Shown here: piece by piece, positions 1-27,058 of the stretch
Layout: every line of letters begins with the position of its first letter
Numbering within the stretch: the first letter of the stretch is position 1
Source: an uncultured Chloroflexia bacterium
Lineage (GTDB): Bacteria; Chloroflexota; Limnocylindria; Limnocylindrales; CSP1-4
Reading direction: 5' to 3'
DNA: 64,000 nucleotides
Assembly (NCBI GenBank): GCA_963828165.1
Contig: CAWHDR010000001.1
Location: 2,208,001-2,272,000, forward strand
Made by a program: the position numbers and the translations under genes
The notes under the pieces: generated by a model
What the model saw: the letters and a program-made list of their open reading frames with translations, nothing else
Databases searched by the model: none
Told to the model about the DNA's origin: nothing

Positions 1-41
1 GCCGCGCAGGACGCGGACGCGGCGCGCCAGGTCGCGGCCCG

Positions 42-827
42 ATGACCGGGACCGGCGGCACGATCCGCGTGGACGGGGTCGACCTGTCGTTCCCGGTCCG
101 CGGCGGGGGTCGCCTCCCCGTCCTCGATGGCATGACGCTCGACGTCGCCGGTGGCGGGATCGTGGCCCTCATCGGACCGAATGGCTGCGGCAAGTCAACG
201 CTCCTACGCGTGATCGCCGGGCTGCTCGCACCCCAGCGGGGCACGGTGACACTGGACACGGCTCGGATCGTGGAGCCCGACCCTCGGATCGGCCTGGTCT
301 TCCAGGAGCCGCGCCTGCTGCCGTGGCGATCGGCCGCTGACAACATCACGTATCCGCTGGAGCTGGCCGGCTGGCCGCCGACCCGCCGCTCGAAGCGCCT
401 GGCCGAGCTCGAGAAGCTCGTCTCACTCGACCCTAGGGTGAGGGGTAATCGGCCCGCCGAGCTCTCCGGCGGGACCCGTCAACGGGTCGCGCTCGCACGT
501 GCCCTCGCGCTCGAGCCCGAGGTGCTGCTCCTCGACGAGCCATTCAGCGCGCTCGATGCGCTGAGCCGCGAGCGGTTCGACCTGGAGCTGTTGGGGCTCT
601 GGGAGCGCGCCGCGTCGACGATCGTGCTGGTCACGCACAGCATCGCGGAAGCGATCCTCGTTGCGGATCGGATCGTCGTGATGTCGCCACGACCGGGACG
701 TGTGGTCGCGGACATCCCTGTTGAGCTGTCGCGTCCGCGCTCGATCGAAGACCTGGACGCCGCCGTCGTGTCCGAGACGGCACGCCAGGTTCGTCGACAC
801 CTCGGCGAGGGCGAGGTAGCGGCGTGA
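42..827 (+). CDS. ABC transporter ATP-binding protein, NitT/TauT family
   Basis: Walker A GPNGCGKS, signature LSGG, Walker B LLLDEPF, H-loop VTH; first gene of an ATPase-permease-SBP operon. Confidence 0.93.
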   Translation: MTGTGGTIRVDGVDLSFPVRGGGRLPVLDGMTLDVAGGGIVALIGPNGCGKSTLLRVIAGLLAPQRGTVTLDTARIVEPDPRIGLVFQEPRLLPWRSAADNITYPLELAGWPPTRRSKRLAELEKLVSLDPRVRGNRPAELSGGTRQRVALARALALEPEVLLLDEPFSALDALSRERFDLELLGLWERAASTIVLVTHSIAEAILVADRIVVMSPRPGRVVADIPVELSRPRSIEDLDAAVVSETARQVRRHLGEGEVAA

Positions 828-1573
828 GTTGGTCCAATTTTTGGTCGGTCGCGGCCGCCGCGATGGTGTTCGCTCTGACCTGGAACATGGTCGTCATCGT
901 CAGCGGGTTCCCGCCTTACATTCTTCCCCCGCCCACCGCGGTCGTCGGACGCTTCGTGTCGGCATGGGGCCAGGGGATCATCCAGCCGCATCTGCAGACG
1001 ACCCTCGTCGAGGTCGCGCTCGGTTTCGCGGTCGGCGCCAGTCTTGGGCTCATCGTCGGGTACGCGCTCGCGCGCAGCGCGCTGGTCGAACGGCTGGTCT
1101 CGCCCTATCTCGTGGCGGCCCAGGCGACGCCGATCCTCGCCTTCGCGCCGCTGATCGCCTTGTGGTTCGGGCCCGGTCTTGGAGGCAAGGTTGTCATCTG
1201 CTCGCTCATCGTGTTCTTCCCGGTCGCGGTCTCGACCATGGTCGGGATCCGGTCCGTCGATGCGGGCCTCCTGGAGTTGGGTCGGTCGCTTCGGGCGACC
1301 CGCCGCCAGATCCTGACGACGCTCGAGATCCCGGCCGCGCTCCCGTCGATCCTCGGGGGGATGCGGGTGGGGGTCACGCTGGCCGTGGTCGGCGCGATCG
1401 TCGGTGAATGGGCGGGTGCCGAACGCGGCCTCGGGGTGCTCGTCAATCTCGCCCGCGGGTCCCTCTTCGATATCCCGCTCATGTACGCCGCGCTCGTGAC
1501 CATCGCGACGATCGGGATCGTGCTCTACATCGCCGTCGTCCTCGTCGAGCGCCGCCTCGTCGGCGCCCGCTAG
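824..1573 (+). CDS. ABC transporter permease, NitT/TauT family (RibX-like)
   Basis: Multiple TM helices, EAA-like loop, GAIVGEW..AERGLG motif; GTGA overlap with the ATPase stop. Confidence 0.92.
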   Translation: MSWSNFWSVAAAAMVFALTWNMVVIVSGFPPYILPPPTAVVGRFVSAWGQGIIQPHLQTTLVEVALGFAVGASLGLIVGYALARSALVERLVSPYLVAAQATPILAFAPLIALWFGPGLGGKVVICSLIVFFPVAVSTMVGIRSVDAGLLELGRSLRATRRQILTTLEIPAALPSILGGMRVGVTLAVVGAIVGEWAGAERGLGVLVNLARGSLFDIPLMYAALVTIATIGIVLYIAVVLVERRLVGAR

Positions 1574-1591
1574 CCCCAGTCGGAGGATTCC

Positions 1592-2749
1592 GTGTCATCA
1601 AGAAATCGCCCCCTCGTCCTCGTGGCTGCTGCCGTGATCGCGCTCGTCGCCGTCCTGGTGCTCATCCCTCGCGGTACGCCGTCCGGCGAACCCGGCACCA
1701 GCGGGCCGATCCCCACGTGTCCTGGTGATATCGACCGGACGACGCCGTCCGCGTCCTGCCCCGCCGAGGCATCGGGCTCGGTCGGGCCGAGCGACGAACC
1801 CAGCGCCGGCGCGAGCGACGAGCCGAGCCAGGAGCCCGTCGCGCTGACTGTCGGCCTCGGGTTCATCCCGAGTGTCCAGTTCGCCCCGTTCTACTTGGCC
1901 GACCAGGCCGGCTACTACGCGGAAGCCGGTGTCGACGTCGAGTTCCAGAACAAGATCGACCCGGATCTCGTCACGCTCGTCGGACAGGGCTCCATCGACA
2001 TCGGGCTGGCCGACGGGACGAGCGTCATCCCGGCGGTCAGCCAGGGCATCCCGATCAAGTACGTGGCCACGATCTACGGCCAGTTCCCCTCGATCGTGTT
2101 CTCGAAGGCATCGACCGGGATCAGGACGGCGGCGGACCTCGCCGGGAAGAAGGTCGGGATCCCAGGGCGATTCGGGTCGTCCTGGATCATGCTCCAGGCG
2201 CTGCTCGCCGACGCCGACCTCACGCCCGAGGACGTCGAGATCGTCGAGTACCCGGACTTCGGGCAGGGTGCCGCCGTGTCCCAGGGGGCGGTGGCTGCCG
2301 CGACCGGGTTCGCGAACAACGAGCCCGTCCAACTGGAGTTGACCGGGGAGGAGGTCACGGTCCTGCGCGTCGACGACATCGTGCCGCTTCCGGGCAACGG
2401 GTTGATCGTGGGCAACTCGACGCTCGAATCGAAGTCCGACGCCATCGCCGGGTTCATCGCGGCCACCCTGCGCGCGATGGAGGACATCGCCGAGAAGCCC
2501 CAGGTCGGGCTCGATGCGGCCTTCACGGCCGTCCCGGAGCTCGGCTCGGCCCCCGAGGTGCAGGCCGCGATCCTCGATGCCACGATCGAGGTGTGGAAAG
2601 GGCCGGCACAGGAGGCGCGCGGGTTCGGGGCCATCGAGCCCGCGGACTGGGAGCAGTCGATCGCGTATCTCCAGACGCTCGATCTGGTGCCGAACCCGGT
2701 CACGGTCGACGACGTCATCGAGACCGGCCTGTTGCCGGCACAGGACTGA
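1592..2749 (+). CDS. ABC substrate-binding protein, NMT1/THI5 family (RibY-like; riboflavin or pyrimidine-type ligand possible)
   Basis: N-terminal membrane anchor, GLGFIPSVQFAPFYLA and DLAGKKVG motifs; GGAGG RBS before GTG. Confidence 0.85.
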   Translation: MSSRNRPLVLVAAAVIALVAVLVLIPRGTPSGEPGTSGPIPTCPGDIDRTTPSASCPAEASGSVGPSDEPSAGASDEPSQEPVALTVGLGFIPSVQFAPFYLADQAGYYAEAGVDVEFQNKIDPDLVTLVGQGSIDIGLADGTSVIPAVSQGIPIKYVATIYGQFPSIVFSKASTGIRTAADLAGKKVGIPGRFGSSWIMLQALLADADLTPEDVEIVEYPDFGQGAAVSQGAVAAATGFANNEPVQLELTGEEVTVLRVDDIVPLPGNGLIVGNSTLESKSDAIAGFIAATLRAMEDIAEKPQVGLDAAFTAVPELGSAPEVQAAILDATIEVWKGPAQEARGFGAIEPADWEQSIAYLQTLDLVPNPVTVDDVIETGLLPAQD

Positions 2750-2754
2750 CGGCC

Positions 2755-4287
2755 GTGCTCGGTGGGGTCCGGCCGACGGCGGCACGGCGGTCCTGGTGGC
2801 TCCGCGAGTCTCTCGCCGCGGAAGAGGCCGCCGCACCCCATCTGGCCGCGGCCGCGCCACCGTTGCGTGGCACCACGACGGCCGACGTCGTCATCGTCGG
2901 CGGCGGCTACACGGGCCTGTGGACCGCGCTGCACCTGACGGAGCTCGAGCCGTCGGCCAGGATCGTGCTGATCGAATCCGACATCTGTGGCGGTGGGCCG
3001 TCCGGGCGGAACGGCGGGTTCGTCACGAACTGGTGGGATGAGCTTCCGACGCTCATCGACCGCTACGGCGTGCCGGGTGCGATCGGCGTCGGTGAAGCGA
3101 TGGAGGCGGCCGTCGACGAGGTCGGCACGTTCTGTGCCACGAACGACGTGGACGCCTGGTTCACGAAGGCGGGGTCGCTGTCGGCGAGCGCGGCGTCGGC
3201 GCAGGACGGTGGCTGGATGCCGGCCGTGACCGCGCTCCGCGACCACGGTCTGGGCGACCGTCTCGTGCCGTTGACGGCGGACGAGGTCCGGGCGCGTGTC
3301 CGATCACCGGTGTTTCGCGACGGGGTGTTCATGCCGGGGGCGGCCACCGTCCAACCGGCGACGCTGGCCCGCGGGCTGCGGCGCGTGCTACTCGAACGTG
3401 GCGTCACCATCCACGAGGGCACCAGCGCGACCGAGATCGACGGTCAGCGGCCCGGTTGGCTCGGCGCCCTGGGTGCCGGGACCCGTCGTGCACCACGCCG
3501 CCGCGGCGCGGCCGGCGGACCGCGACCCGTCCGGGTGCGAACGATGTCGACGGCTGGCGACGGCGAGGTGCTCGCGGGATCGGCGGTCCTGGGGCTCAAC
3601 GCCTGGGCAGGAGCCTGGCCGTGGTTCGGACCGCGCCTCGTCACGTGGTCGTCGTACATCGTCCTCACCGAGCCCATCCCCGATCTCCTCGCCGACATCG
3701 GCTGGACCGGTGGCGAGGGCGTCGCCGACGCCAGGTTCACGCTCCATTACCTGAGGACGACACCGGACGGACGGATCGCGATCGGCGGCGGTGGCGGTCG
3801 GGCCGGGTTCGCCGGTCGGATCGGACCCGCGTTCACGGATGCGGCGGCCGATGCGAGTCGGGCTGCCGCGGGACTGCGTCGGCTGTTCCCGTCGCTTCGT
3901 GACGTGCGCATCGAGGACGCCTGGGGCGGGCCGATCGATATCAGCGCTGACCATCTGCCCTGGTTCGGGTCGGTGCGCGGTCGCCCCATCCACTATGGCC
4001 ACGGGTACAGCGGCAACGGCGTCGGGCCGGCCGTCGTCGGGGGACGGATCCTCGCGGCGCGGGCGGTCGAGCGCAGGGACGACCCGGCGCTCGCCCTGGC
4101 GATCGCAGACGGACGGCCGCCGCGGCCCTTCCCACCGGAGCCCGCGAGCTACCTTGGCGCGCGGCTGATCCGCGAGGCCGCCGTCCGGCGCGAATCGATG
4201 GAGGAACGTGGCGAGAAGCCCGGATTCGTGCTTCGCGAGGTCAGCCGGCTGCCCAGGCGGCTGGGCTATCACCTGGGGCCCGAGTAG
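2755..4287 (+). CDS. FAD-dependent oxidoreductase, DAO/PuuB-like
   Basis: GGGYTG dinucleotide motif, SGRNGG, WGGPID, GYSGNGVG; start approximate (GTG 2755 or CTG 2746). Confidence 0.85.
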   Translation: MLGGVRPTAARRSWWLRESLAAEEAAAPHLAAAAPPLRGTTTADVVIVGGGYTGLWTALHLTELEPSARIVLIESDICGGGPSGRNGGFVTNWWDELPTLIDRYGVPGAIGVGEAMEAAVDEVGTFCATNDVDAWFTKAGSLSASAASAQDGGWMPAVTALRDHGLGDRLVPLTADEVRARVRSPVFRDGVFMPGAATVQPATLARGLRRVLLERGVTIHEGTSATEIDGQRPGWLGALGAGTRRAPRRRGAAGGPRPVRVRTMSTAGDGEVLAGSAVLGLNAWAGAWPWFGPRLVTWSSYIVLTEPIPDLLADIGWTGGEGVADARFTLHYLRTTPDGRIAIGGGGGRAGFAGRIGPAFTDAAADASRAAAGLRRLFPSLRDVRIEDAWGGPIDISADHLPWFGSVRGRPIHYGHGYSGNGVGPAVVGGRILAARAVERRDDPALALAIADGRPPRPFPPEPASYLGARLIREAAVRRESMEERGEKPGFVLREVSRLPRRLGYHLGPE

Positions 4288-4396
4288 CGCCGTTCGGGCT
4301 CCACCGGCGAACCCGTCCGGAGCAGAAATCGGCCAAATCGGCTATCGTTGGTACTCCCCGCCGCACCTGACGTACCTCGCTGTGCAGGAGTCCCCG

Positions 4397-4585
4397 TTGA
4401 ACAGTCGCCCGCCCGTCAAGCCTGCCATCGCCAACGAGCCCTTCAAGCACGTGATCGATGAGTACAAGCACCAAGCTCAGACGATCACCTGCACGTGCGG
4501 CTGGCACGGTAGCTCGGCGACGATCGATCGCGCCGGCTCCGAGTGGACGGCCCACCTCATCGAGGTTCGCGGCAAGAAGCGCTGA
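4397..4585 (+). CDS. Small protein (62 aa) with CxCGW...H putative metal-binding motif
   Basis: AGGAG RBS 4386-4390, TTG start, followed directly by an intrinsic terminator. Confidence 0.6.
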   Translation: MNSRPPVKPAIANEPFKHVIDEYKHQAQTITCTCGWHGSSATIDRAGSEWTAHLIEVRGKKR

Positions 4586-4607
4586 GCCCGAATACCGAAC
4601 GGACGAC

Positions 4608-4638
4608 GACCCGGATCGACCGATCCGGGTCTTTCTTT
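4608..4638 (+). terminator. Rho-independent terminator
   Basis: GACCCGGATCG/CGATCCGGGTC inverted repeat followed by TTTCTTT. Confidence 0.8.
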
Positions 4639-4692
4639 GCCCGTGGCAGGGTCGCCGGTCGGCGACGTCGAACGCCTGCTAGCCTGTCGCGC

Positions 4693-6018
4693 GTGGACCT
4701 GCCTCAGAGCCCGCCATTCGCGCTCCGCGGTCGCCTCCTGACGCCCCTCGACGACGGCGGCACGACGTACGAGGCCAACGGGCTCCTGGTGGTGGACGGC
4801 TCCGGCCGGATCGCCTTCGCCGGCCCCGCCGATGCTCGGCCGGAGGAGGCGTCCGGTGCCATCGATCTGCGGCGATGGCTCCTCCTCCCTGGCATGGTCG
4901 ACCTGCACGCCCACCTGCCCCAGCTCCCGAACGCCGGTCTGGGCGCCGGCCTCGACCTGCTGACGTGGCTCGAGCGGTACATCTTTCCGCTGGAGCGTGC
5001 CTTCGATGCGGCGGCAGCCGAGCGGCTGGCCCCGGCCGCCTGGCGCGCCTTTGCGGGCGCGGGCACGACGACCGCGATGGTCTACGGAGCGGTCTACGAA
5101 GCGAGCCTGGACGCCACGTTCCGTGCGGCCGAGGCGCACGGGATCCGGGCCATCGTGGGCAAGGTGATGATGGACCGGGGGACCTACGACCCGACGATCG
5201 ACCCCAAGGTCATCCTCGATCAGAGCCTGGCCGAATCCGCGCGGCTGATCGATCGATGGCATGGGGCCGACGACGGCCGCCTCCGGTACGCGGTCACGCC
5301 GCGGTTCGCCATCACCTGCACGGCCGACCTGCTCCGCGAGTCCGCCGCGCTCGCCACCAGCACCGGGGCCTACTGGCAGACGCACGTGTCGGAAGACCGT
5401 GGCGAGATCGCGGAAGTCGCCCGGCTCTTCCCGGACGCCATCGATTACGTCGACGTCTACGACCGCGCCGGAGGGCTCGGAGAGCAGACCGTGCTCGCGC
5501 ACGCCGTTCATCTCTCCGATCGGGAGCTCGGGCGTCTGGTCGAAACCGGAACACGGATCGCCCATTGCCCCGTGTCGAACCTGTTCCTGGCGTCGGGGAT
5601 GATGCCACTGGGCCGGTACCTCGATGCGGGCATGAGCCTGGGGCTGGGCTCGGACGTCGCCGGGGGTCCGGACCTCTCGATCTTCACGGTCATGCGGACC
5701 GGCTTCTACGTGCAGAACGCCCGTCGCGTGGCCGGCGTCGAGGAGGGACGCATTCTCACGCCGTTGGACTGGCTGCGCCTTGGATCGCTGGGAGGAGCGC
5801 AGGCGCTGGGCCTCGGCGAGGTCATCGGCTCGCTGGAGGCCGGCAAGGAAGCCGACGTGATCGCGGTCGACCCGGCCTTCACGGCGCCGGTCCCGGGCGT
5901 GGAAGACGACGAGGCCGCGGACATCGCGAGTCGGATGATCTTCCGCTCACACCCCGACATGGTCCGAGCCGCCTGGGTCCGCGGCCGTCGCCTGGAGGGA
6001 CCCGGAGCTCGCGGGTGA
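4693..6018 (+). CDS. guaD: Guanine deaminase
   Basis: Amidohydrolase motifs DLHAHLPQ, WLERYIFPLE, TPRFA, QTHVSE, HCPVSNLFLASG, GSDVAGG; TAGCCT -10 box 7 nt before GTG. Confidence 0.9.
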   Translation: MDLPQSPPFALRGRLLTPLDDGGTTYEANGLLVVDGSGRIAFAGPADARPEEASGAIDLRRWLLLPGMVDLHAHLPQLPNAGLGAGLDLLTWLERYIFPLERAFDAAAAERLAPAAWRAFAGAGTTTAMVYGAVYEASLDATFRAAEAHGIRAIVGKVMMDRGTYDPTIDPKVILDQSLAESARLIDRWHGADDGRLRYAVTPRFAITCTADLLRESAALATSTGAYWQTHVSEDRGEIAEVARLFPDAIDYVDVYDRAGGLGEQTVLAHAVHLSDRELGRLVETGTRIAHCPVSNLFLASGMMPLGRYLDAGMSLGLGSDVAGGPDLSIFTVMRTGFYVQNARRVAGVEEGRILTPLDWLRLGSLGGAQALGLGEVIGSLEAGKEADVIAVDPAFTAPVPGVEDDEAADIASRMIFRSHPDMVRAAWVRGRRLEGPGARG

Positions 6019-6027
6019 CGGACGTTT

Positions 6028-6185
6028 CGCGGTCCACGTGCACCGGGCGCTCCTATCGTCGAACGGACCTTGCCCCGATGCCCGTTTGTGCGCTCAGTGC
6101 ACGCCACCTCGGCTGAACGCTCGGATCGGCCCGCTAGCCGGGCTCGGTCGACGGTCCGTCCGACGATAGCGTCGTGGGATGCACG
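6028..6185. repeat. Palindromic repeat unit, family 1, left copy
   Basis: Ungapped imperfect direct repeat of 6968-7125 (offset 940); internal inverted arms CGTGCA...CTATCGTCGAACGGA and TCCGTCCGACGATAG...TGCACG. Confidence 0.88.
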
Positions 6186-6213
6186 GAAAGAGGCTGGCGG
6201 GCCCTCGGGTCGC

Positions 6214-6885
6214 CTATAGGAAGATCAGGGCCGAACCGCCCGGATGCTCGCCGCGGCTTAGTGCCGCCAGGGCGCGGCGGGCACTGATCGGGAAACGATC
6301 CGCGAGCGCCGCCGCGGCCGTGGCGATGGCGGCTCGGTTGGCGGGTGTGTCGGAGATCACGACGATGATGTGCTCGATCTCGGCGTCGCGAGCCTTCCGT
6401 TCGATTCGGCGGAACTGGGCCTGGGTGTCATGGATCCGAGTCTCGGCCTCCGCTGGGATGATGCGGTCGCGGTCGTTGGCGCTTCGAAGGCCACCGACGA
6501 CGCTGTCCCACGCCCGCAGGTCGTTCGCGATCGGCAGCGGGACTTCTATCCGGAAAGTCAGATCGGGATGCAAGCGAGCACGGAAGCGCGACAGGAGGGC
6601 TGCTTGAGCGGCATCGCGGATCGGATCCGGTCCGGGGTAGGCGCGAATCCGGACGTCCAGCCCGACGACCGCTCCGATCCGACCTAGCTGGACAGCCGTT
6701 ACCGCATCATGCCTCGACCGCTCGATCCGTCCGACCTGGGAACCAGACATCCCGACCGCGCGACCGACCTCTTCGAGTGTTAGTCCTGCGGTCAGCCGCG
6801 CTGCACGAAGATCAGAGCCCATCGAGACGAGATCCCGCTGGACGGTCCTGGTGCCCCGATCGACGACCCTCTCCTTGGCTGGCAT
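6214..6885 (-). CDS. XRE-family HTH fused to PD-(D/E)XK/DUF559-like putative nuclease domain (paralog 1)
   Basis: LRAARLTAGLTLEEVGRAVGMSGSQVGRIE HTH; C-terminal EVP...AWD...EAE acidic motif; homologous to 42819-43571; start ATG 6885 or TTG 6900. Confidence 0.75.
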   Translation of the reverse strand: MPAKERVVDRGTRTVQRDLVSMGSDLRAARLTAGLTLEEVGRAVGMSGSQVGRIERSRHDAVTAVQLGRIGAVVGLDVRIRAYPGPDPIRDAAQAALLSRFRARLHPDLTFRIEVPLPIANDLRAWDSVVGGLRSANDRDRIIPAEAETRIHDTQAQFRRIERKARDAEIEHIIVVISDTPANRAAIATAAAALADRFPISARRALAALSRGEHPGGSALIFL

Positions 6886-6927
6886 GACCACAGTCTGCAA
6901 CTGAGCCCTCTACGTCGGCTTATCCAT

Positions 6928-7125
6928 GTGCATCAGGTGCCCTACCGGCGAACGGATGCGCGCAGCCCGCGATCTACGTGCACCGGGTGCTCCTATCGTC
7001 GAACGGCTCCGGTCCCGATGCCTGTTTGTGCAGCGGGTGCACGCCACCAACACGGAACCTGCCGGAATCCGCCGGACTTTCCACTCGCTCAGCGTTCCTT
7101 CGACGATAGCGTCGTGGGGTGCACG
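6928..7125. repeat. Palindromic repeat unit, family 1, right copy plus an extra box
   Basis: 6976-7006 matches 6036-6066 at 30/31; 7101-7125 matches 6161-6185 at 24/25; 15-bp GTGCAC-N3-GTGCAC-like boxes at 6928, 6978, 7028. Confidence 0.88.
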
Positions 7126-7164
7126 TGCACCGCCGGCGTGACCCCAACGCGCTAAGGTCCGGGC

Positions 7165-8766
7165 ATGAGTGACAGCGTCGATCTCCTGATCACGAGCGGC
7201 GCGGTCGTGGACGGCACGGGCGCGCCGCCACGACCCGGCACGGTGGTCGTCGAGGGCGACCGGATGCGGCTGCTCCCCGGGGACGCGCCGCTCCCTGAGC
7301 ACGTCGGGCGGCGCATCGACGCCACCGGCAAGGTCGTCGCGCCCGGGTTCATCGACCTGCACAGCCATGGCGGCCTGGTCATCCTCGCCGAGCCGCGCCA
7401 CGAACCCAAGGTCCGCCAGGGCGTCACGACCGAGATCGTCGGGGTCGACGGCAACGGCTTCGCCCCGTTCGAGACCCGGGAGGACCTGCTCGACTTCGTC
7501 GACCTCGATTCGGGGCTCGACGGCCGGCCCGACCTCGACTACGACTGGCGCACGGTCGCCGACTATCTCGCCCGCTACGACGGCACGGTCAGCCTCAACG
7601 TCGGGACCCTGGTCGGTAACTCGCAGCTCAGGATCGGCGCGCTGGGCTGGGACGACGTCCCGGCCGGTGATGGAGCCATCGATCGCATGCGCGGCATCCT
7701 GCGCGACGCGCTGGCCGAAGGCGCGGTAGGCCTCTCAAGCGGTCTCGACTACCCGCCGGGGAGCTACGCCACCACCGAGGAGCTCGCCGCGCTGACACGG
7801 ACCGCGGGCGAGGCCGGCGGCTTCTATCACACCCACGTCCGGTACCAGCTCGGCGATCGCTACCTCGACCCGTTCAAGGAAGCCATCGACATCGGACGCC
7901 GTGCCGGCGCACCTGCACACATCACGCACTTCTATCACCGCCAGACCCATCCAGGTGGCCCGGAGGCCCTCATCGCCCTGGTCGACGATGCGCGCGCCGG
8001 CGGCCTCGACGTCACGTTCGACACCTACCCGTCGGAGTGGGCGAGCACGCGGCTCCTCATCCAGCTTCCAGGCTGGATCCAGGAAGGCGGACCGAGGCCG
8101 CTCAAGCAACGCCTCGCCGACCGAGCTGCCCGCGATCGCCTGCGCGAAGAATTCTCGGCTCGCGGCGCGGCCTACACGGGACCGGGTGGCTGGGCGGACC
8201 TGCGCCTGGGCGCGTTCCACCGCCCCGATCTCCTGCGCTGGGAATCGATGACCATGGCGGACGTGATGGATGAGACGGGCAAGGACGCCGTCGACGTCAT
8301 CTGCGATCTGCTGCTGGCCGAAGACCTCGGCGTCAACCAGGTCACGAGCGGGCCGTGGTCCGAGACGCTGCGCGACTTCGTCAAGCATCCGGTCGGGATG
8401 GTTGGCACGGATTCCACGTTCATCGGTGCCAAGCCGAGCCCGCGGACCTACGGTTCATTCCCACGGATCCTTGGTCAGTTCGTGCGCGACGAAGGCCTCC
8501 TGAGCCTCGAGCAAGCCATCCACAAGATGACCGGTGCAGCCGCGGCCCGCCTGGGCCTCAAGCAGCGCGGAACGATCCGCGACGGTGCCTACGCCGACTT
8601 GGTCGTCTTCGATCCGGCGGAGGTTCGAAGCAACGCCACGTACGACGACCCGCGCCGCTTCCCGAGCGGCATCGACCATGTCGTGGTCAATGGCACCCTC
8701 GTCGTGGACAGCGGCACCCACACCGGCGCGTTCCCAGGACGTGGGATCCGCCTCGGGGCCGACTGA
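7165..8766 (+). CDS. N-acyl-D-amino-acid deacylase family amidohydrolase
   Basis: APGFIDLHSH, QGVTTEIVG, SSGLDYPPG, PRTYGSFPRILG, ADLVVFDP motifs; TAAGGT-N6-ATG. Confidence 0.9.
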   Translation: MSDSVDLLITSGAVVDGTGAPPRPGTVVVEGDRMRLLPGDAPLPEHVGRRIDATGKVVAPGFIDLHSHGGLVILAEPRHEPKVRQGVTTEIVGVDGNGFAPFETREDLLDFVDLDSGLDGRPDLDYDWRTVADYLARYDGTVSLNVGTLVGNSQLRIGALGWDDVPAGDGAIDRMRGILRDALAEGAVGLSSGLDYPPGSYATTEELAALTRTAGEAGGFYHTHVRYQLGDRYLDPFKEAIDIGRRAGAPAHITHFYHRQTHPGGPEALIALVDDARAGGLDVTFDTYPSEWASTRLLIQLPGWIQEGGPRPLKQRLADRAARDRLREEFSARGAAYTGPGGWADLRLGAFHRPDLLRWESMTMADVMDETGKDAVDVICDLLLAEDLGVNQVTSGPWSETLRDFVKHPVGMVGTDSTFIGAKPSPRTYGSFPRILGQFVRDEGLLSLEQAIHKMTGAAAARLGLKQRGTIRDGAYADLVVFDPAEVRSNATYDDPRRFPSGIDHVVVNGTLVVDSGTHTGAFPGRGIRLGAD

Positions 8767-8772
8767 TCGCGT

Positions 8773-9645
8773 TCAGCCTTCGCTGGCTTTACGGGCATCG
8801 CGCCGAAGCTCCACGTACATCCGCTCCGTCGCGAGCCGCTGCGCATCGATCAGGGTCGGCTCGCCGTCGGTGCCGGCCCAGCCGACCGCGAGGGTGAGGG
8901 CGATGGCGCCGGATTCGAGCCACAGCTCGCACGCTCGACGCACCCGTTCGACGTAGTTGATGGCCGCGACCTCGTCGGTCTCGGGCAGGAGGATGCCGAA
9001 GCGACCGGGCGCCAGCCGCGCCACGAGGTCGACGTCGCGGGCAAGCCGGCGCAACGTGTCCGCCAACGCCGGAACGACGCGATCGGCGGCGTCGGCTCCC
9101 AGCCGGCCCACGAGGCGATCGAGCCCGCCAAGCTCGAAGATGACGACGGTCGCCGGCCGGTGATAGCGATGGATCCGGAGATCCTCGGCGGCGATCAAGC
9201 GGGTGAACGCCGCCTGGTCGAGCAGGCCCGTCAGCGCGTCTTTGCCCGCCGCCGGTTCGACCGGTGCCGGTTCGGAGGCGGGTTCGCCCTTCGGCTCGAT
9301 GCTCGCGTCGGTGTCCGGGGAGGCCTCGGTCTCCACGAGCGCGGCAGCGGGAAGTGCGGCCATATCGCGAGGATCGCTCCGGTCGCCATCGCGGCTCCCC
9401 TCCGGTCCCGCGGAATCCGCAGCCCCGCCATTCGATGCTCCATCCGACGTCCAGGTCGACCGCCCCGACTCGTCGACGAACGAGCTGGACATGAGGCTGC
9501 TCTGCAGGACCGATCGGGTCGTGGCCGGGCTGGCGTTCTTCGTGCGGCTCATTCGACCCGCGTAGACGACCAGCACCAGGAGCACGGTGTTCGCGACGAT
9601 GGCGGCCAGGAGGACTGGCAGCAGGATGTCCTGCGTGACTTCCAT
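8773..9645 (-). CDS. Membrane-anchored degenerate GGDEF-domain protein
   Basis: N-terminal TM helix, DALTGLL, GADAAD; active-site loop reads RLAPGRF instead of RLGGDEF. Confidence 0.8.
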   Translation of the reverse strand: MEVTQDILLPVLLAAIVANTVLLVLVVYAGRMSRTKNASPATTRSVLQSSLMSSSFVDESGRSTWTSDGASNGGAADSAGPEGSRDGDRSDPRDMAALPAAALVETEASPDTDASIEPKGEPASEPAPVEPAAGKDALTGLLDQAAFTRLIAAEDLRIHRYHRPATVVIFELGGLDRLVGRLGADAADRVVPALADTLRRLARDVDLVARLAPGRFGILLPETDEVAAINYVERVRRACELWLESGAIALTLAVGWAGTDGEPTLIDAQRLATERMYVELRRDARKASEG

Positions 9646-9869
9646 GGGTTCGAGTCCTTGATGAGTGCCTAAGAACCTTGATGAGTGCGAAGAAAGAGCG
9701 ATCAGGCGGCCGATGATAGGTCCGCGGCCCGCGAATGTGACCATCGGATGACCCATTCGGGCCACGTTGTCGGTGCGACATGGCACCGCGACCGACGGGT
9801 CCAGAGCGGTCCGGGGCGGTATGTCACGGTCCGGTGGACCCGCCACCCCGGGTGGTATCGTCGTGCGCC

Positions 9870-12236
9870 ATGGAGGGTTCCCAGACCACGCGCATGACGA
9901 CCGGCACGTCGCCCGCGAGCCCCATCGTCGTCCAGCCCGAGACCGTCGTCCCGGGGATGGCGCGCCCGGCCGCGCCATTGCGCCGCGAGGGGCCGGCCAA
10001 GCTCACCGGCACGGCCCTGTACACGGACGACATCGTCGTCCCCGGGGCGTGGTACGGCACCACGATCCGCTCGACCGACGCCCACGCCACGTTCGATGCG
10101 CTCGAACTCGATCCTGGCTTCGACTGGTCGAAGGTGGTCGTCGTGACCGCGGCCGACATCCCGGGCGAGAACATCGTCAGCTCGATCAAGAGCGACCAGC
10201 CGATCCTCGTCCCGCTCGGCGGCGAGATCCAGCACCACGCGGAGCCGCTCGCCCTCCTGGCCGCGCCCGACAAGGCGACCCTGCGCGAAGCGCGACGCCG
10301 GGCGCTGCCGCGGACGACGAAGCTGCCGGGCGTGTTCGACCCGCTCGAGTCGGACCATACATTCGCCCAGTACACGATCGAAGCCGGTACCGACGTCGAG
10401 GCCGCGCTGGCAAGCGCCGACGTCGTCCTCGAAAGCGAGTACCGCGTCGGTCACCAGGAACAGCTCTACATCGAGAACAACGCGATGATCGCCGTACCCA
10501 CCGACGGCGGCGGCGTCACCGTCACGGGCTCGCTCCAGTGCCCGTACTACCTGCACGCAGCGTTGAAGCGCGGGCTGGGCCTCGACGATCAAGCCGCCCG
10601 CGTCGTCCAGGCCGAGACCGGCGGCGGGTTCGGAGGCAAGGAGGAATTTCCCTCGGTCATCGGGCTGCACGCAGCGCTCCTCGCGCGCAAGGCCCAGAAG
10701 CCGGTGCGGATGATCTACGAGCGCCACGAGGACATCGCCGCCACGACCAAGCGCCACCCGGCGATCGTCCGTCACCGGACGGGCGTCACCCGCGATGGCC
10801 GGCTCGTGGCCCAGGACATCGAGGTCATCATGGACGGCGGCGCGTACTGCACGCTGACCCCGGTCGTGCTCTCGCGCGGTGCGCTGCACAGCGGCGGGCC
10901 GTACCGCTGCCCGAACGTCCGCATCCGTGCCCGCGCGACCCGGACGAACACGCCGCCCAACGGCGCGTTCCGCGGATTCGGCGCTCCGCAGACCGAGTTC
11001 GCCGCCGAAACGCACCTCAACCGGATCGCCGAGCAGTTGGGCATCTCGCCGCTCGAGATCAGGCGGCGGAACGTCTACCAGCCCGGCGACACGACCCCGA
11101 CCGGGCAGATCCTGCGGGACAGCGTGGCGGGCGAAGAGGTCCTGGAGCGTGCGGCCGAGGCCGCCGAGTTCACCCGGCTGCGGGCGAAGACCGAGGACGC
11201 GCGGCGGGCGCGCGCGGGCTCCGGTTCGACCCCTGGGTCACCGCTCCGCACGGGCCGCGATCGCACGGCCAGCGGCATCGGCCTCGCCCTCGCGTGGCAC
11301 GGTGCCGGGTTCACGGGCTCGGGCGAGATCAAGCTCGCCAGCGTGGCCTCGCTGGAACTCACGGCCGAGGGCCGTGTCGTCGTCCTGACCGCCTCGACCG
11401 AAATGGGGCAGGGGACCAAGACGATCTTCCCGCAGCTCGTCGGCGACGCGCTTGGGATCCCGGACGAGGACGTCGAGCTCGCGCCGCAGGACACGGCCGT
11501 CGTGCCGGACAGCGGTCCCACGGTCGCATCGCGGACGGCGATGGTCGTAGGCGGCCTGCTCATCAAGGCGGCGCGGACGCTGCGCGAGAAGGTCGAGCAG
11601 GAAACCGGAGCACCCTTTGTGGACTCGTACGTCGCCTACGCCCGCGACCACGGCGCGACCCGCATCGACCAGCGGTTCGAGCCCTACCCGGACAGCGTCA
11701 CCTTCGATGACGACCTGTACCGCGGCGATGCCTACCCGGCATTCGGGTGGGCCGCGTGCGTCGCGGAGGTCCAGGTCGATCTCGACACCGGCGAAGTCCA
11801 CGTGCGCGACGTCGTCGCCGCCGACGACATCGGCCGGGTCATCCACCCGGTCCTCGCCGAAGGCCAGGTCGAGGGCGGCACCCTGCAGGCCGTCGGCTAC
11901 GCGACGATCGAGGAGATCAAGCTGCGAGACGGTCGCTATCTCAACGACCGCCTCGCGACGTACATCATCCCCACCGCGCTCGACGCGCCGCGCATCTCGA
12001 CGATCCTCGTGGAGGCTCCGTTCCATGCCGCTCCCCACGGCGCCAAGGGTGTCGGAGAGCTGCCGATGGACGTCGGGGCGCCGGCGGTCGTTGCCGCCAT
12101 CGCGGACGCGACCGGGATCTGGATCGGGGAGCTGCCGGCCAGCCCGGAACGGATCCTGGCCGCTCTTTCGGGCACGCCAGAAGCCGCCGGCCTGCCACCG
12201 GGTGCGTCTGCTCCCGCGCTCGAGGGACGCGCGTGA
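9870..12236 (+). CDS. Xanthine dehydrogenase family molybdopterin-binding subunit
   Basis: GGGFGGKE, AFRGFGAPQ, EMGQG, GQVEGG, AKGVGE motifs; TATCGT-N8-ATG. Confidence 0.92.
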   Translation: MEGSQTTRMTTGTSPASPIVVQPETVVPGMARPAAPLRREGPAKLTGTALYTDDIVVPGAWYGTTIRSTDAHATFDALELDPGFDWSKVVVVTAADIPGENIVSSIKSDQPILVPLGGEIQHHAEPLALLAAPDKATLREARRRALPRTTKLPGVFDPLESDHTFAQYTIEAGTDVEAALASADVVLESEYRVGHQEQLYIENNAMIAVPTDGGGVTVTGSLQCPYYLHAALKRGLGLDDQAARVVQAETGGGFGGKEEFPSVIGLHAALLARKAQKPVRMIYERHEDIAATTKRHPAIVRHRTGVTRDGRLVAQDIEVIMDGGAYCTLTPVVLSRGALHSGGPYRCPNVRIRARATRTNTPPNGAFRGFGAPQTEFAAETHLNRIAEQLGISPLEIRRRNVYQPGDTTPTGQILRDSVAGEEVLERAAEAAEFTRLRAKTEDARRARAGSGSTPGSPLRTGRDRTASGIGLALAWHGAGFTGSGEIKLASVASLELTAEGRVVVLTASTEMGQGTKTIFPQLVGDALGIPDEDVELAPQDTAVVPDSGPTVASRTAMVVGGLLIKAARTLREKVEQETGAPFVDSYVAYARDHGATRIDQRFEPYPDSVTFDDDLYRGDAYPAFGWAACVAEVQVDLDTGEVHVRDVVAADDIGRVIHPVLAEGQVEGGTLQAVGYATIEEIKLRDGRYLNDRLATYIIPTALDAPRISTILVEAPFHAAPHGAKGVGELPMDVGAPAVVAAIADATGIWIGELPASPERILAALSGTPEAAGLPPGASAPALEGRA

Positions 12237-12715
12237 CGACCTACCGCCTCACGGTCAACGGCACGCCCGCGGAGGTGGATGTCCCGGGCATGCGCCGCCT
12301 GCTGGACGTGCTCCGTGAGGATCTCTCCCTGACCGGCACGAAAGAGGGCTGCGGGGAGGGCGAGTGCGGCGCCTGCACGGTGCTGGTGGACGGCGCTCCG
12401 GTCGATTCATGCCTCGTTCCGATCTGCCAGGTCGCCGGGACCGAGGTTCGCACCGTCGAGGGCCTCGCGGCGCCGGCATCGGACCCGGCCGAACCGGATG
12501 CGATGGACCCGCTCCAGGTCGCGTTCCTCCAGACCGGCGGGGCGCAGTGCGGCATCTGCACACCCGGGATGCTGATGGCCGCTCGAGCCTATCTCGAGGC
12601 CGGTGGGGGCCGGGACGAGGGCGCCATCCGCGAGGCGATCGCCGGCAATCTCTGCCGCTGCACGGGCTACACAAAGATCATCGACGCCATCGCGCTCGCC
12701 GCCGGCCCCCGATGA
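12233..12715 (+). CDS. Xanthine dehydrogenase family (2Fe-2S)-binding subunit
   Basis: GCGEGECGAC, QCGICTPG, GNLCRCTGY; GTGA overlap with upstream stop. Confidence 0.93.
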   Translation: MTTYRLTVNGTPAEVDVPGMRRLLDVLREDLSLTGTKEGCGEGECGACTVLVDGAPVDSCLVPICQVAGTEVRTVEGLAAPASDPAEPDAMDPLQVAFLQTGGAQCGICTPGMLMAARAYLEAGGGRDEGAIREAIAGNLCRCTGYTKIIDAIALAAGPR

Positions 12716-12743
12716 CCGGCCCCCGATGACCGGCCCCCGATGA
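12702..12743 (+). repeat. 14-bp tandem repeat x3 (CCGGCCCCCGATGA) at a gene junction
   Basis: Three direct copies spanning the 2Fe-2S gene stop. Confidence 0.85.
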
Positions 12744-12765
12744 CCCGGCCACGCTGAGCGCCCTC

Positions 12766-13647
12766 GTGCCGATCGAACCGCCCGTCACCAGCCCGAGCGA
12801 CCTCCACGGCGCGTATGCCGCGCTCGCCGCCGCCCCGGCGGACGCCCCCGCCCGGCCCATCGCCGGCGGCACGGACCTGATGGTCGCCCTGACCGGCGAG
12901 CTCGGCGAGCCACCGGCAAGCGTCGTCGACCTGTGGGCCATCGATGCCTTGCGCGGCATCGCGATCGATGGCGCAGCGCTCGTGCTCGGCGCCCTGACGA
13001 CGTACACGGACATCCGTCGCTCGCCGCTGTGTCGCGAGCACGTCCCGGCCCTCGTCGACGCGGCTGCGACGATCGGGGCGGCCCAGATCCAGAACCGCGG
13101 CACGCTCGGTGGCAATATCGCGAATGCCTCACCCGCCGGCGACACGCTGCCGGTCCTGCTCGCGGCGGATGCCGTGTTCGTGCTCGGGTCTGGGCGAGGC
13201 GAGCGCGACGTCCCGGCGGCCGACTTCTGGACGGCCTACCGGCGCACCGCGCTCGCCCCCGACGAGCTGGTGCTGCGCGTGCGGATCCCGCTCGCGACCG
13301 ATCGCGAGATGCGGTTCCGCAAGATCGGGACGCGCCGGGCGCAATCGATCAGCAAGGTCGTCCTGGCGGCGGCCTGGCGGTCGGACGCGGTCGCGGTCGT
13401 GCCCCGCGGCGCGTGGCGCGATGTCCGGGTCGCCCTCGGGTCCGTGGCCGCCACCCCGATCCGAGCCCGCGCGACGGAAGCCGTGCTCGAGGGCCGAGCC
13501 CCGACCCCGGAAACGGCAGACCTCGCGGCGGAGACCCTGGCCGGCGAGCTGTCGCCGATCGAAGATGTCCGTTCGACCGCCGAGTACCGCCGGCTCGTGG
13601 CGGCTCGCGTGCTCCATCGAATCGTTCGCGAGGCCGGCGGCTGGTGA
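12766..13647 (+). CDS. Xanthine dehydrogenase family FAD-binding subunit
   Basis: IAGGTDLMV, QIQNRGTLGGNIANASPAGD, DVRSTAEYR. Confidence 0.92.
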   Translation: MPIEPPVTSPSDLHGAYAALAAAPADAPARPIAGGTDLMVALTGELGEPPASVVDLWAIDALRGIAIDGAALVLGALTTYTDIRRSPLCREHVPALVDAAATIGAAQIQNRGTLGGNIANASPAGDTLPVLLAADAVFVLGSGRGERDVPAADFWTAYRRTALAPDELVLRVRIPLATDREMRFRKIGTRRAQSISKVVLAAAWRSDAVAVVPRGAWRDVRVALGSVAATPIRARATEAVLEGRAPTPETADLAAETLAGELSPIEDVRSTAEYRRLVAARVLHRIVREAGGW

Positions 13648-17674: not shown

Positions 17675-19078
17675 CTATCCGGTGACGGGGCCCCGCTCGA
17701 GGAACTGCCCCGCGCCGCGGCGGCCGACGAACTGACCCGCTCGGATGACGTCCGCACCGCGGACGATCACGTCGCGGACGGCGCCACGCACGTCCAGGCC
17801 CTCGTACGGGGTGTAGTCGCTCGTGTGGTGGAGATCGGTCGCGCGGAGCGTCCGCGTCGCCTTCGGGTCGAAGAGCACGAGATCGGCATCGCGGCCCACC
17901 TCGATCGCGCCCTTGCGAGCGAGGCCGAACCGAGCGGCCGGGGTGGTCGCGAGCACGTCGACCATGCGCTCGATCGTCAGTCGACCGCGGGCCACGCCTT
18001 CGCTGTAGATGAGCGCGAGCAGCGTCTCGATGCCTGGTGCTCCATTGCTGATCTGGTCGAACGAGATGCCCTTCGCGGCCTCGGCCTTCTCGACGCCGAC
18101 ACGGTCGGCGACGTGGTCCGTGGCGACCAGGTCGAGCGACCCGTCGGCGAGCCCATCCCACAGCGCGTCCCGATCGGCGGCGGAGCGCAGCGGCGGCGAG
18201 ATGACGTAGCAGGCGCAGCGCGTCGGGTCGGGCTCTTCGTACTCCGCATCGGTCAGCGTGAGGTAGTGCGGACACGTCTCGGCGGTCACCCGGACGCCCG
18301 CCGCCTTCGCGCGCCGAACCTCGTCGAGCGCGGCCGCCGACGAGAGATGGACGACGTGCACGGGCGAGTCGGTGGCTCGGGCGAACGCCACGGCGCGGGC
18401 CGTCGCGACCGCCTCGACATACGCCGGTCGCGAGGTGGCGTGGTAGCGCGGTAACACGTCACCACGCTGCAGCGATGCGGCCACGGCGGCATCGAGCAGC
18501 ACCGGATCCTCGCAGTGGACCTGGAGCATGCCGCCACGCTCGCCCATCGACCGCATCGCGTCGAACAGCGCCTGGTCAGGTAGCCGGAAGTCGAAGACCA
18601 TGAAGGCCTTCGAAGTCGCGACCCCGGCGTCGATCGTGGCCGGAAGCTCGGCCAGCGGGTCGTCGGCGTGCCCCGAGATCGCGAGCGAGAGGCCGTAGTC
18701 GATCGCGCTGTCCGCGTTCGTGGCCGTGCGCCACTCCGCCAGCCCGGTTTGCAGCGATCGCTCGGCGGCCGGCGATGACCCGGTTCCAGGGTTATTGAAC
18801 GACAGGAACGACGTGGTCCCGCCATGCGCGGCGGCCACGGAATCCTGGAAGAACCGGTCTGGCTCGGCATCCGAGGCGACTCGCGTGTGGGTGTGCACGT
18901 CGACCACGCCGGGGAGGACCAGCATCCCGGTCGCATCGATCACGCGCGTCGCGCCCGCGGCCGGGCCGGCCAGGTCGGGCTCGATGGCCGTGATGACACC
19001 GGCATCCACCGCCACGTCCGCCCGCCGGGACCCGGCCGTGGTCACGACCGTCCCGCCCCGGACGATGAGATCAGTCAT
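17675..19078 (-). CDS. hydA: Dihydropyrimidinase/hydantoinase family cyclic amidohydrolase (possible allantoinase role)
   Basis: PGVVDVHTH, VHCED, ETCPHYL, SPPLR, ATDH, DYTPYEG. Confidence 0.85.
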   Translation of the reverse strand: MTDLIVRGGTVVTTAGSRRADVAVDAGVITAIEPDLAGPAAGATRVIDATGMLVLPGVVDVHTHTRVASDAEPDRFFQDSVAAAHGGTTSFLSFNNPGTGSSPAAERSLQTGLAEWRTATNADSAIDYGLSLAISGHADDPLAELPATIDAGVATSKAFMVFDFRLPDQALFDAMRSMGERGGMLQVHCEDPVLLDAAVAASLQRGDVLPRYHATSRPAYVEAVATARAVAFARATDSPVHVVHLSSAAALDEVRRAKAAGVRVTAETCPHYLTLTDAEYEEPDPTRCACYVISPPLRSAADRDALWDGLADGSLDLVATDHVADRVGVEKAEAAKGISFDQISNGAPGIETLLALIYSEGVARGRLTIERMVDVLATTPAARFGLARKGAIEVGRDADLVLFDPKATRTLRATDLHHTSDYTPYEGLDVRGAVRDVIVRGADVIRAGQFVGRRGAGQFLERGPVTG

Positions 19079-19089: not shown

Positions 19090-19258
19090 TTCACCATGAA
19101 TGAACACGAGCGCGCTGAACGCGCCAGGATCCCTGTGCTATCGACTTGGCGGGCGCTCTTACGTCGACGCATTCACCACCACCGAACGTCTCCCCAGATG
19201 CTGGTCGAAACATAAGCCGGTGCTGGACTTGACCCGACATTCGTTCACTACCAGAGAA
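19090..19258. repeat. Gene-less three-box palindromic array, family 2
   Basis: TTCACCATGAATGAA (19090), TTCACCACCACCGAA (19172), TTCACTACCAGAGAA (19244); spacings 82 and 72, as at 43620/43702/43774. Confidence 0.7.
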
Positions 19259-23835: not shown

Positions 23836-24110
23836 GGCCGGAACTCGCCTCGGGCCGCGAGCTGGGACACGCGTCGCTGCTCGGATCCGGCCGGAACTCG
23901 CCTCGGGCCTGGGATCCTGGGCACGCGTCGCCGCTCGGATCCGGCCGATCCTCCTGCCCTCGGGCCGCGATCTGGGACACGCGTCGCCGCTCGGATCCGG
24001 CCGGAACTCGCCTCGGGCCTGGGATCCTGGGCACGCGTCGCCGCTCGGATCCGGCCGGAACTCGCCTCGGGCCTGGGATCCTGGGCACGCGTCGCCGGAT
24101 CCGGCTGGAA
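23836..24110. repeat. Tandem repeat, 50-56 bp unit x5
   Basis: Units start at 23836, 23889, 23943, 23999, 24053 (partial at 24103); core GGCCGGAACTCGCCTCGGGCC...CACGCGTCGCCGCTCGGATCC. Confidence 0.92.
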
Positions 24111-24298
24111 CTCCGCCAAATGTGCTCCCACCGGAACGTAAGGCGGTCATCACGCTCGGGATTCGAGCTCCATTCGTTCACGATCGGCGCCGTCACGCAC
24201 GAACCCAGCCTCATGAACGTTCACGAGAGGCCCGAAAACCGGGTTTCGAGGGTCGTGAGACCGCCGTACGTTCCCCACGGAATACATTTGGCGGAGTT
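24109..24298. repeat. Long inverted-repeat (MITE/REPIN-like) element
   Basis: AACTCCGCCAAATGT/ACATTTGGCGGAGTT perfect 15-bp ends; GGAACGTAAGGCGGTC/GACCGCCGTACGTTCC inner arms. Confidence 0.8.
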
Positions 24299-26885: not shown

Positions 26886-27058
26886 GGAGCGCGCCGCCGC
26901 ACGCGCAGGGCATGGCGACAGGTGCGGTTGATGCCGGCGTGATCCTTCCCTGACCGTCTGAAACCTGTGCGTTTGCCCGAGTGCGCTATCGTGACCGTCC
27001 CGACAACCCAGGGCCGGGTCCTCCGGTGGTGCGCGGGACACTAGGCGAGGTCGATACC

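Follow-up and report, generated by a model that had tools for sequence, protein, structure and literature searches.

Positions 2,208,001 to 2,272,000 of contig CAWHDR010000001.1, from an uncultured Chloroflexia bacterium, form a stretch of 64,000 nucleotides with a G+C content of 70%, which is called the window in this report. Near its left end a gene for a 223-residue protein lies antisense between two amidohydrolase genes, and a 158-nt repeat unit is found on each side of the gene (Table 1). Over residues 22-81 the protein matches the Pfam families HTH_31 (37.7 bits, cut-off 27) and HTH_3 (25.1 bits, cut-off 23), which places it among the XRE or Cro/C1-type helix-turn-helix (HTH) regulators. 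The start codon is the ATG at 6885, which is conserved, and orthologs open with MPxxER. The gene is under purifying selection, with a ratio of nonsynonymous to synonymous divergence (dN/dS) of 0.09-0.16 against its three closest orthologs.

A first-pass annotation of this DNA had named the two neighbours guaD and a deacylase gene. The left neighbour is indeed guanine-deaminase-like, scoring 352.5 against model NF006679 (cut-off 351) and 354 against TIGR02967, which is below the cut-off of 375 for that model. The name deacylase was not confirmed by curated cut-offs; the right neighbour is an Amidohydro_3-family enzyme. An ABC transporter, a DAO-type oxidoreductase, molybdopterin and FAD subunits of xanthine-dehydrogenase type, uricase and malate synthase are also encoded in the cluster, which reads as one for the catabolism of purines or other N-heterocycles. 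In 1-13647, a region annotated non-exhaustively, the domain families of the scanned genes are those of transport, amidohydrolase, oxidoreductase and GGDEF proteins only, and no recombinase or transposase domain was recognised in these genes or in the HTH gene. The C-terminal domain of the HTH protein, which matches no family, may still have a recombinase role.

The two repeat units lie exactly 940 bp apart, as the first-pass annotation had reported. Direct-repeat blocks at 6028-6108 and 6968-7048 (81 nt, 83%) and at 6154-6185 and 7094-7125 (32 nt, 88%) both have this spacing, therefore the unit is ungapped throughout; the stretches of 30/31 and 24/25 identity described earlier were seen within the repeat sequences. 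Over the whole unit 107 of 158 positions are identical and the longest exact run is 18 nt, while a gapped blastn comparison of one flank with the other aligns 161 nt at 75.8% (E 1e-26). Each unit is also an interrupted inverted repeat, again in agreement with the earlier description. The arms pair at 72-93%, namely 6965-7003 with 7099-7137 (39 nt, 72%), 6029-6068 with 7094-7133 (40 nt, 78%) and 6156-6169 with 6993-7006 (14 nt, 93%).

Palindromic boxes resembling GTGCAC-N3-GTGCAC recur in and beside these units. The box GTGCACNNNGTGCAC has 12 matches with at most two mismatches in the window, where 4.1 +/- 2.2 are expected and none of 100 shuffles reaches 12. Five of the 12 begin at 6038, 6088, 6928, 6978 and 7028 and show the exact 50-bp period claimed for them. 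Each unit holds three boxes at spacings of 50 and 83 bp: box A, box B and a half box in the far arm. A second motif, CTATCGTCGAACGG, follows box A and is found again, inverted, in the far arm; five of its eight window matches (at most two mismatches) fall within 6028-7125. This motif contains CGAAC, and the idea of a link to LexA-type boxes was dropped since the motif is not palindromic. In eight copies of the unit from four genomes, box A and its second motif hardly vary, nor do box B and the inverted arm, although the synonymous divergence of these genomes is 0.28-1.16; these blocks are under purifying selection.

Table 1. Features of the window, in order of position
Feature	Position	Strand	Remarks
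Left neighbour, guanine-deaminase-like amidohydrolase	4543-6018	plus	assigned by NF006679 and TIGR02967 model scores
Left unit	6028-6185	unstranded	3' side of the HTH gene, between it and the convergent guanine-deaminase-like gene; box A, second motif, box B, inverted arm
Left box A	6038-6052	unstranded	GTGCACCGGGCGCTC; then second motif CTATCGTCGAACGG at 6053-6066
Left box B	6088-6102	unstranded	50 bp beyond box A
Left inverted arm	6154-6185	unstranded	reverse complement of the second motif (6156-6169) and half box ending TGCAC (6171-6185), 83 bp beyond box B
HTH gene	6214-6885	minus	223 residues; XRE-type HTH (residues 22-81) and C-terminal domain of about 140 residues without known family
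Promoter-like motifs of HTH gene	6892-6924	minus	CAGACT 6892-6897 (6 nt before ATG), GTAGAG 6908-6913, GATAAG 6919-6924; from upstream alignment, putative function
Degenerate extra 50-nt unit	6928-6955	unstranded	box GTGCATCAGGTGCCC and CTACCGGCGAACGG; partial nhmmer match 6923-6960, E 0.015
Right unit	6968-7125	unstranded	divergent region of HTH gene and Amidohydro_3 gene; box A 6978-6992, second motif 6993-7006, box B 7028-7042, inverted arm 7094-7125
Palindrome GGTGCACGTGCACC	7118-7131	unstranded	outer end of right unit, 22-35 nt upstream of the Amidohydro_3 -10-like hexamer; putative operator
-10-like TAAGGT, six bases, then Amidohydro_3 ATG	7153-7167	plus	predicted leaderless-transcript signature
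Right neighbour, Amidohydro_3-family enzyme	7165-8766	plus	likely regulated gene
Remote array of paralog-1 boxes	19090-19258		boxes 19090/19172/19244, spacings 82/72; first box 11 nt upstream of an amidohydrolase start (gene at 17675-19078, minus)
Paralog 1, 3' boxes	42615-42773		three boxes in 72-bp steps
Paralog 1	42819-43604	minus	precedes lhr and a nei/fpg gene
Paralog 1, 5' boxes	43620-43921		five boxes, in and beside a 133-nt tandem repeat, upstream of lhr
Remote array of paralog-1 boxes	59322-59470		boxes 59322/59394/59456, spacings 72/62; between a cyanophycin-synthetase-like gene and a small hydrophobic open reading frame

A scan of 5900-7300 with sigma-70 and terminator consensus sequences found nothing. 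In an alignment of the upstream regions, a CAnnnT motif 5-8 nt before the regulator start and a GATAAG/GGTAAG-type element recur in most of 30 such regions, in both gene orientations. In the antisense-type loci inspected, TAAGGT, TATGGT or TACGGT stands 6-7 nt before the amidohydrolase start. Motifs of GATAAG and GTGAG type are also seen farther upstream of regulator starts, in the window and in the related loci L001-L029 introduced below.

How old is the repeat-gene-repeat arrangement? The first-pass annotation had taken it for an insertion that could excise as a 940-bp circle and had named conserved synteny in distant relatives, in advance, as the finding that would speak against insertion. 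Such synteny was found. The family alignment retrieved 29 loci from species-representative genomes, all of them metagenome-assembled genomes (MAGs) of Chloroflexota and mostly labelled Limnocylindrales. In 20 of the 29 the regulator lies between the same two amidohydrolase neighbours, 15 times antisense as in the window and five times co-directional, and the identity of the neighbours falls to about 57-62% across these loci. The five co-directional loci form one clade in the protein tree (Shimodaira-Hasegawa-like approximate likelihood ratio test, SH-aLRT, 99), therefore one inversion suffices to explain both arrangements. The co-directional clade has a single array. Three antisense loci (L019, L022 and L028) have only 0-46 nt between the regulator and the deaminase gene and hence no second unit.

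Units on both sides are present in the window and in L001, L002 and L003, that is in four of the four closest genomes, among which the synonymous divergence (dS) is 0.28-1.16. Between L001 and L002 the left units are 85% identical and the right units 84%, while the left and right units within one genome are 70% and 66% identical. The duplication is therefore old and predates these genomes. A nhmmer profile of eight units finds only the two known copies in the window (the left one at E 9e-37, a copy that is itself included in the profile). Weaker homologues adjoin the regulator gene, 3' of it in L006 and L012 and 5' of it in L020 and L028, and no unit was found away from the regulator gene in the window and the 29 loci. 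The second motif occurs seven times in L001-L003, always inside units, and not at all in the other 26 loci. A tblastn search with the family found no match in 72,556 plasmid and 50,697 phage records.

Across 13 loci the divergence of the regulator is rank-correlated with that of the right neighbour (rho 0.60, p 0.03) and less so with that of the left neighbour (rho 0.41, p 0.16), which lends weak support to the view that the regulator is inherited together with its neighbours. The G+C content at third codon positions (GC3) of the HTH gene is 0.746, compared with 0.85 and 0.86 in the neighbour genes. It is low in both paralogs of the window (0.75 at 6214-6885 and 0.73 at 42819-43517, with 0.81-0.86 in the genes compared), and in the related loci the regulator reading frames have about 0.78-0.80 and the flanking genes mostly 0.84-0.95. 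Low GC3 looks like a family trait and not like a sign of recent transfer because the regulator frames of related loci show it as well. Recent insertion and ready excision of the unit are thus not supported by these comparisons: the synteny holds in most loci, all of them found through the gene itself, both units are kept in four genomes, no exact run exceeds 18 nt and no recombinase was recognised in the HTH gene or the scanned neighbours. In the window the flanking repeats are too diverged to recombine; those of L026, 92-100% identical over about 250 nt, are not. It is most likely that the unit is a long-resident gene for a local repressor and not a recent mobile insertion.

The protein belongs to a large, uncharacterised family of the Chloroflexota class Limnocylindria. 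A profile search of 1.84 billion representatives gave 1388 cluster representatives at E <=1e-3 and 874 at E <=1e-10. Nearly all of the best 150 of the 1388 consist of the HTH and the same C-terminal domain, and none leads to a different superfamily. Of 18 longer members, 16 matched only HTH families, one a periplasmic-binding domain, possibly through a gene-call fusion, and one nothing. Look-ups in a protein atlas returned only HTH clusters from Chloroflexota, and the names of sequence clusters were uninformative. No relevant literature on regulators of Limnocylindria was found, judged from titles and the starts of abstracts. Family members lie mostly on contigs of about 1-2 kb, either because assemblies broke at the flanking repeats or just because metagenome contigs tend to be short. 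In L017, L018 and L027 the regulator frame looks disrupted or frameshifted; these may be sequencing errors in MAGs or real decay.

Nine of the 29 loci have other contexts. The regulator is found beside an FtsH-like protease gene (L008, L014 and L015), a UvrA-like gene (L026), an AlkZ gene (L024), an acetyl-CoA synthetase gene (L029) and RibD_C genes (L025); in L011 it is preceded by the gene of an ABC-2 membrane protein, and in L027 its neighbours are a DUF6941 gene on one side and an ABC-type ATPase gene on the other. The neighbour proteins of these loci have no match in the window, and the Lhr and DUF6062 proteins of the window have none in the loci.

Palindromic boxes are a general feature of the family. 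Strict palindromes of the form NNNCAY-N3-RTGNNN number 34 in the 24.2 kb within 400 nt on either side of the regulators and 29 in the other 295.6 kb, about 14-fold enrichment, and none is found inside the 31 genes; most of the 34, namely 25, stand 3' of the regulator. Sixteen sources were scanned for boxes, each with its own consensus. The arrays consist of three or four palindromic boxes whose sequence is lineage-specific: GTGCAC/GAGCAC in the window clade (window and L001-L003), GGTCAC paired with GTGCAC in the co-directional clade, GGTCAY/GTGACC in L008, L009, L010 and L011, GATCAC/GTGATC in L014, GAACGC/GCGTTC in L015 and GGTCCT/GTGACC in L026. Six sources have boxes both 5' and 3' of the gene, namely L001, L003, L009, L026 and, in the window, the HTH gene and paralog 1; L025 and L029 also have repeats on both sides. 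When flank was compared with flank, direct similarity was seen in nine of 29 sources, only inverted matches in two and none in 18 (L016, with too little flank, was left out). Two loci have additional repeats: about seven 15-nt repeats adjoin the regulator gene at L006:3960-4384, and GC-rich repeats of 18-42 nt are found on both sides of it at L009:5547-5690 and 6933-7082.

The distances between boxes cluster at 50-51, 61-62, 71-72, 82-83, 101, 132 and 162 bp. For 17 distances from six lineages the Rayleigh statistic is R = 0.90 at a period of 10.15 bp, a value that 5000 random sets never reach; when each distinct value is counted once (11 values), the outcome does not change. Distances within a clade are related by descent; separate clades use different multiples. 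The boxes are placed on one face of the helix because their spacings are multiples of about 10.15 bp, and this indicates that several dimers would be held there as in wrapped or looped repressor complexes.

A second member of the family, paralog 1, is encoded in the same window. It is 30% identical to the 223-residue protein over 146 residues (E 1e-11), its HTH scores 46.1 bits, and its own box, TTCAC-N5-GTGAA, is found on both sides of its gene. Its longest open reading frame encodes 261 residues, while relatives mostly have 250, and a perfect 20-nt tandem duplication spans its start codon (43569-43609). The first-pass annotation had proposed that each paralog has a private box. Two paralogs with different boxes were indeed found, and the boxes of other lineages differ as well; however, private is too strong a word, as 14 of the 16 window matches of the paralog-1 box lie in three clusters, two of which are remote arrays of three boxes. 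Paralog-specific boxes are thus supported in outline and not proven. Covariation of the recognition helix with the box offered only two independent contrasts (sign test p = 1). No remote array of the window gene's own box was found in the window or within about 6 kb in 13 relatives. The remote paralog-1 arrays and the boxes near promoters would fit a family of repressors that act in trans.

Family members adjoin DNA-repair genes in several places: lhr and nei/fpg in the window, the AlkZ glycosylase gene in L024 and the UvrA-like gene in L026. The window also has Ku and LigD genes (repair-gene regions 26954-30804 and 44070-49477). The family may be connected with the metabolism of nucleic acids or nucleobases.

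What do the gene and its repeats do? We give a probability of about 0.6 to the reading that the protein is a resident local repressor of the purine-catabolic cluster and that its operator module was duplicated long ago to give the two 158-nt units. HTH dimers would bind the 15-bp palindromes and the C-terminal domain would join dimers, so that three or four of them could wrap or loop 150-200 bp. The array beside the Amidohydro_3 promoter would then repress the Amidohydro_3 gene. The second array, 3' of the regulator, may loop to the first or may stop transcription that reads through from the convergent deaminase operon. The co-directional clade has four boxes that take up the space from the regulator stop codon to the amidohydrolase gene, and the last of them overlaps the TATGGT hexamer upstream of the amidohydrolase. 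This overlap, together with the palindrome near TAAGGT in the window, suggests an operator-like placement. Binding, cooperativity, repression and looping or roadblock are predictions made from the arrangement of the sequence.

Several observations weigh against this reading. All 29 loci were found through the regulator gene itself, so that genomes without the gene, and hence empty sites, could not appear among them. The first box stands 5-18 nt past the regulator stop codon in nine of the 16 sources, and in the FtsH-adjacent group (L008, L014 and L015) all boxes of the array stand between convergent genes and none is found 5' of the regulator. The arrays of this group have no promoter to repress, and a simple operator logic does not account for them, nor for the left unit of the window. 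The window right unit is closer to the left units of L001 and L002 (82 and 80%) than to their right units (74 and 68%), which hints at one conversion event toward the left type, and the flanking repeats of L026 indicate that at least one lineage has recently undergone duplication or conversion. The arms of the units show seven pairs in which both positions have changed, compared with 3.2 +/- 1.4 in shuffles (five of 500 shuffles reach seven); a hairpin would also yield this pattern, and co-evolving protein sites would yield the same complementarity of the arms. Finally, the polar residues of the C-terminal domain are conserved to a degree usual for enzymes, which a simple oligomerisation domain would not need.

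This conservation is seen in 150 cluster representatives. E114 and D127 are present in 150/150, an acidic residue at E146 in 149/150, K164 in 149/150 and E148 in 129/150, while R124, D153, Q155 and R159 are conserved in 148-149 of the 150. The acidic residues form the pattern E-x12-D-x18-E-x-E, in which the usual Lys position is occupied by Glu, as in BamHI; the match is one of pattern only. It resembles the active sites of BamHI (E77, D94, E111 and E113) and of OkrAI, as given in PMC3025578. The likeness to both is confined to the acidic pattern and its similar spacing: the sequences have no detectable similarity, no methylase is found here, and the present protein has an N-terminal HTH. A crude profile-averaged Chou-Fasman estimate, a weak method, predicts the order helix, strands, helix, strand; a core of restriction-endonuclease, PD-(D/E)xK type (alpha-beta-beta-beta-alpha-beta) would agree with this order.

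In a rival reading the protein is an HTH-guided enzyme of restriction-endonuclease type that would nick, cut or resolve DNA at its own arrays. The gene and array would then be a recombination cassette, active or domesticated, that can invert, convert or excise, and repression would be secondary. The near-invariant residues and their spacing favour this, and if the C-terminal domain is an enzyme that acts on the arrays, the inversion at the amidohydrolase locus, the conversion signal of the right unit and the near-identical repeats of L026 gain a mechanism. Arrays also accompany the gene into unrelated contexts (Lhr, the UvrA-like gene, AlkZ, the FtsH-like gene and acetyl-CoA synthetase). However, the C-terminal domain matches no nuclease family or solved nuclease, nor anything else, in Pfam, NCBIfam, PADLOC, PHROGs or a PDB profile search. 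At E <=10 in Pfam, 27 C-terminal domains gave scattered single matches only. No relevant literature was found on XRE proteins with a restriction-endonuclease-like domain, judged again from titles and abstract starts. The locus is stable over 20 syntenic genomes with one inversion only, and the repeats of the window clade have diverged (65-76%). Paralog 1 has Ser at the position of E148, no methylase or immunity gene was recognised among the scanned neighbours, and no copies were found in the plasmid and phage records searched. The enzyme is an unlikely explanation of the locus. We hold it similarly doubtful that the C-terminal domain is either an active HTH-targeted endonuclease-like enzyme on the phased arrays or a sensor of nucleic-acid or nucleobase signals. 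Sensing of nucleobases is considered because family members sit in purine catabolism and beside lhr-nei, the uvrA-like gene and alkZ.

It is more doubtful still that the units act as folded RNA or as single-strand hairpins, for example as a bidirectional 3'-end or stabiliser element, and not as protein-binding DNA. A stem of about 28 bp is possible between the arms of each unit; in the left unit as folded it joins roughly 6037-6066 to 6156-6185. The left unit, which lies in the 3' region of two convergent genes, folds better than shuffled sequences (z -2.13), while the right unit does not stand out (z -1.02, with 35 of 200 shuffles equally good). In the alignment 89.8% of cells are paired and the covariation score is 0.140 against 0.081, above all 500 shuffles; however, related sequences are known to exceed this shuffle control, among the 28 arm pairs of helices 1 and 2 there are 14 that never vary (16/37 when all pairs are counted) and are uninformative, and the RNAalifold covariation term of +1.61 gives no support. 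Rfam has no match at gathering score in the window, nor at E <=1 in 5900-7300. The right unit lies upstream of both leaderless-type promoters and would probably not be transcribed, spacing in multiples of 10.15 bp is a property of double-stranded DNA, and the boxes vary with the lineage of the adjacent protein.

That the units are a small non-autonomous mobile element, similar to miniature inverted-repeat transposable elements (MITEs) or repetitive extragenic palindromic (REP) sequences, which landed twice by chance and is unrelated to the gene, is very improbable: the arms do resemble terminal inverted repeats (72-78%) and the size is typical of such elements, but only two full copies exist in 64 kb, none is found in about 320 kb of related loci except beside the same gene, the second motif stays within units, both copies keep the same two positions in four genomes, and the boxes match the lineage type of the neighbouring protein.

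The window has other repeats as well. At 23836-24298, upstream of a subtilase/SLH gene, intergenic tandem repeats with a period of 54/110 nt (4.8 copies, 87-88% matches) precede an inverted repeat of 40 nt (24109-24148 with 24259-24298, 83%). The 14-nt unit CCGGCCCCCGATGA is repeated 3.4 times at 12702-12750, just before the gene of a FAD-binding subunit at 12766.

The locus illustrates that a striking repeat-gene-repeat layout can be an old regulatory architecture kept by selection and not a mobile element. It also brings to light a large uncharacterised regulator family, defined by sequence alone in a poorly studied class of soil and freshwater bacteria, with predicted operators, lineage variants and an unusually clear helical-phase rule. 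The family offers material to study how DNA is wrapped cooperatively and how paralogs come to differ in protein-DNA specificity. Owing to its invariant acidic residues, the second domain can be tested directly for enzyme activity; if the enzyme or sensor proposal were true, the family would represent a novel kind of DNA-acting, self-associated regulator that is widespread in Limnocylindria.

Features of the locus are shared with several known systems. In the F plasmid, with SopB and sopC, and in other partition systems, tandem palindromic repeats lie directly downstream of the gene of the binding protein at whole-turn spacing. The arrays described here likewise adjoin the 3' end of the gene and have whole-turn spacing, but a partner ATPase is lacking, the gene belongs to the chromosome, where it is conserved in a catabolic cluster, and the protein families are unrelated. 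The best PDB sequence matches to the HTH, 5woq (E 1.6e-6), 1y7y (E 4.1e-6) and 3qq6 (E 5.4e-6), cover about residues 16-81 only and are small XRE regulators with solved structures: ClgR, C.AhdI and SinR. These bind palindromic operators as dimers and are without the 140-residue C-terminal domain.

Arrays between convergent genes recall the immunity repressors of Cluster A mycobacteriophages, which have many stoperator sites outside promoters and may stop elongating polymerase, as stated in excerpts of PMC9283540 and PMC6550527. Stopping of polymerase would explain the arrays between convergent genes here, where a roadblock is a conjecture from their position. According to the excerpt of PMC9283540 the Cluster A repressors are monomeric and recognise an asymmetric site, unlike the palindromic, phased boxes in arrays of three or four found in this family.

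A resemblance in layout is also seen with the CI repressors of lambda and of coliphage 186, which likewise combine a Cro/C1 (XRE) HTH with a second domain and have several palindromic operators on either side of their own gene; this arrangement suggests that binding is cooperative and involves looping or wrapping. CI of lambda loops between OL and OR. In contrast to lambda CI and LexA-like repressors, the C-terminal domain here has no match to Peptidase_S24 in Pfam or to another known family. The setting is chromosomal and metabolic and not that of a prophage, the boxes are five to eight helical turns apart and not adjacent operators, and the arrays are often directly 3' of the gene. Cooperative repression through phased operator arrays, as a variant of the looping-repressor theme in an uncharacterised family, is most likely what this locus represents.

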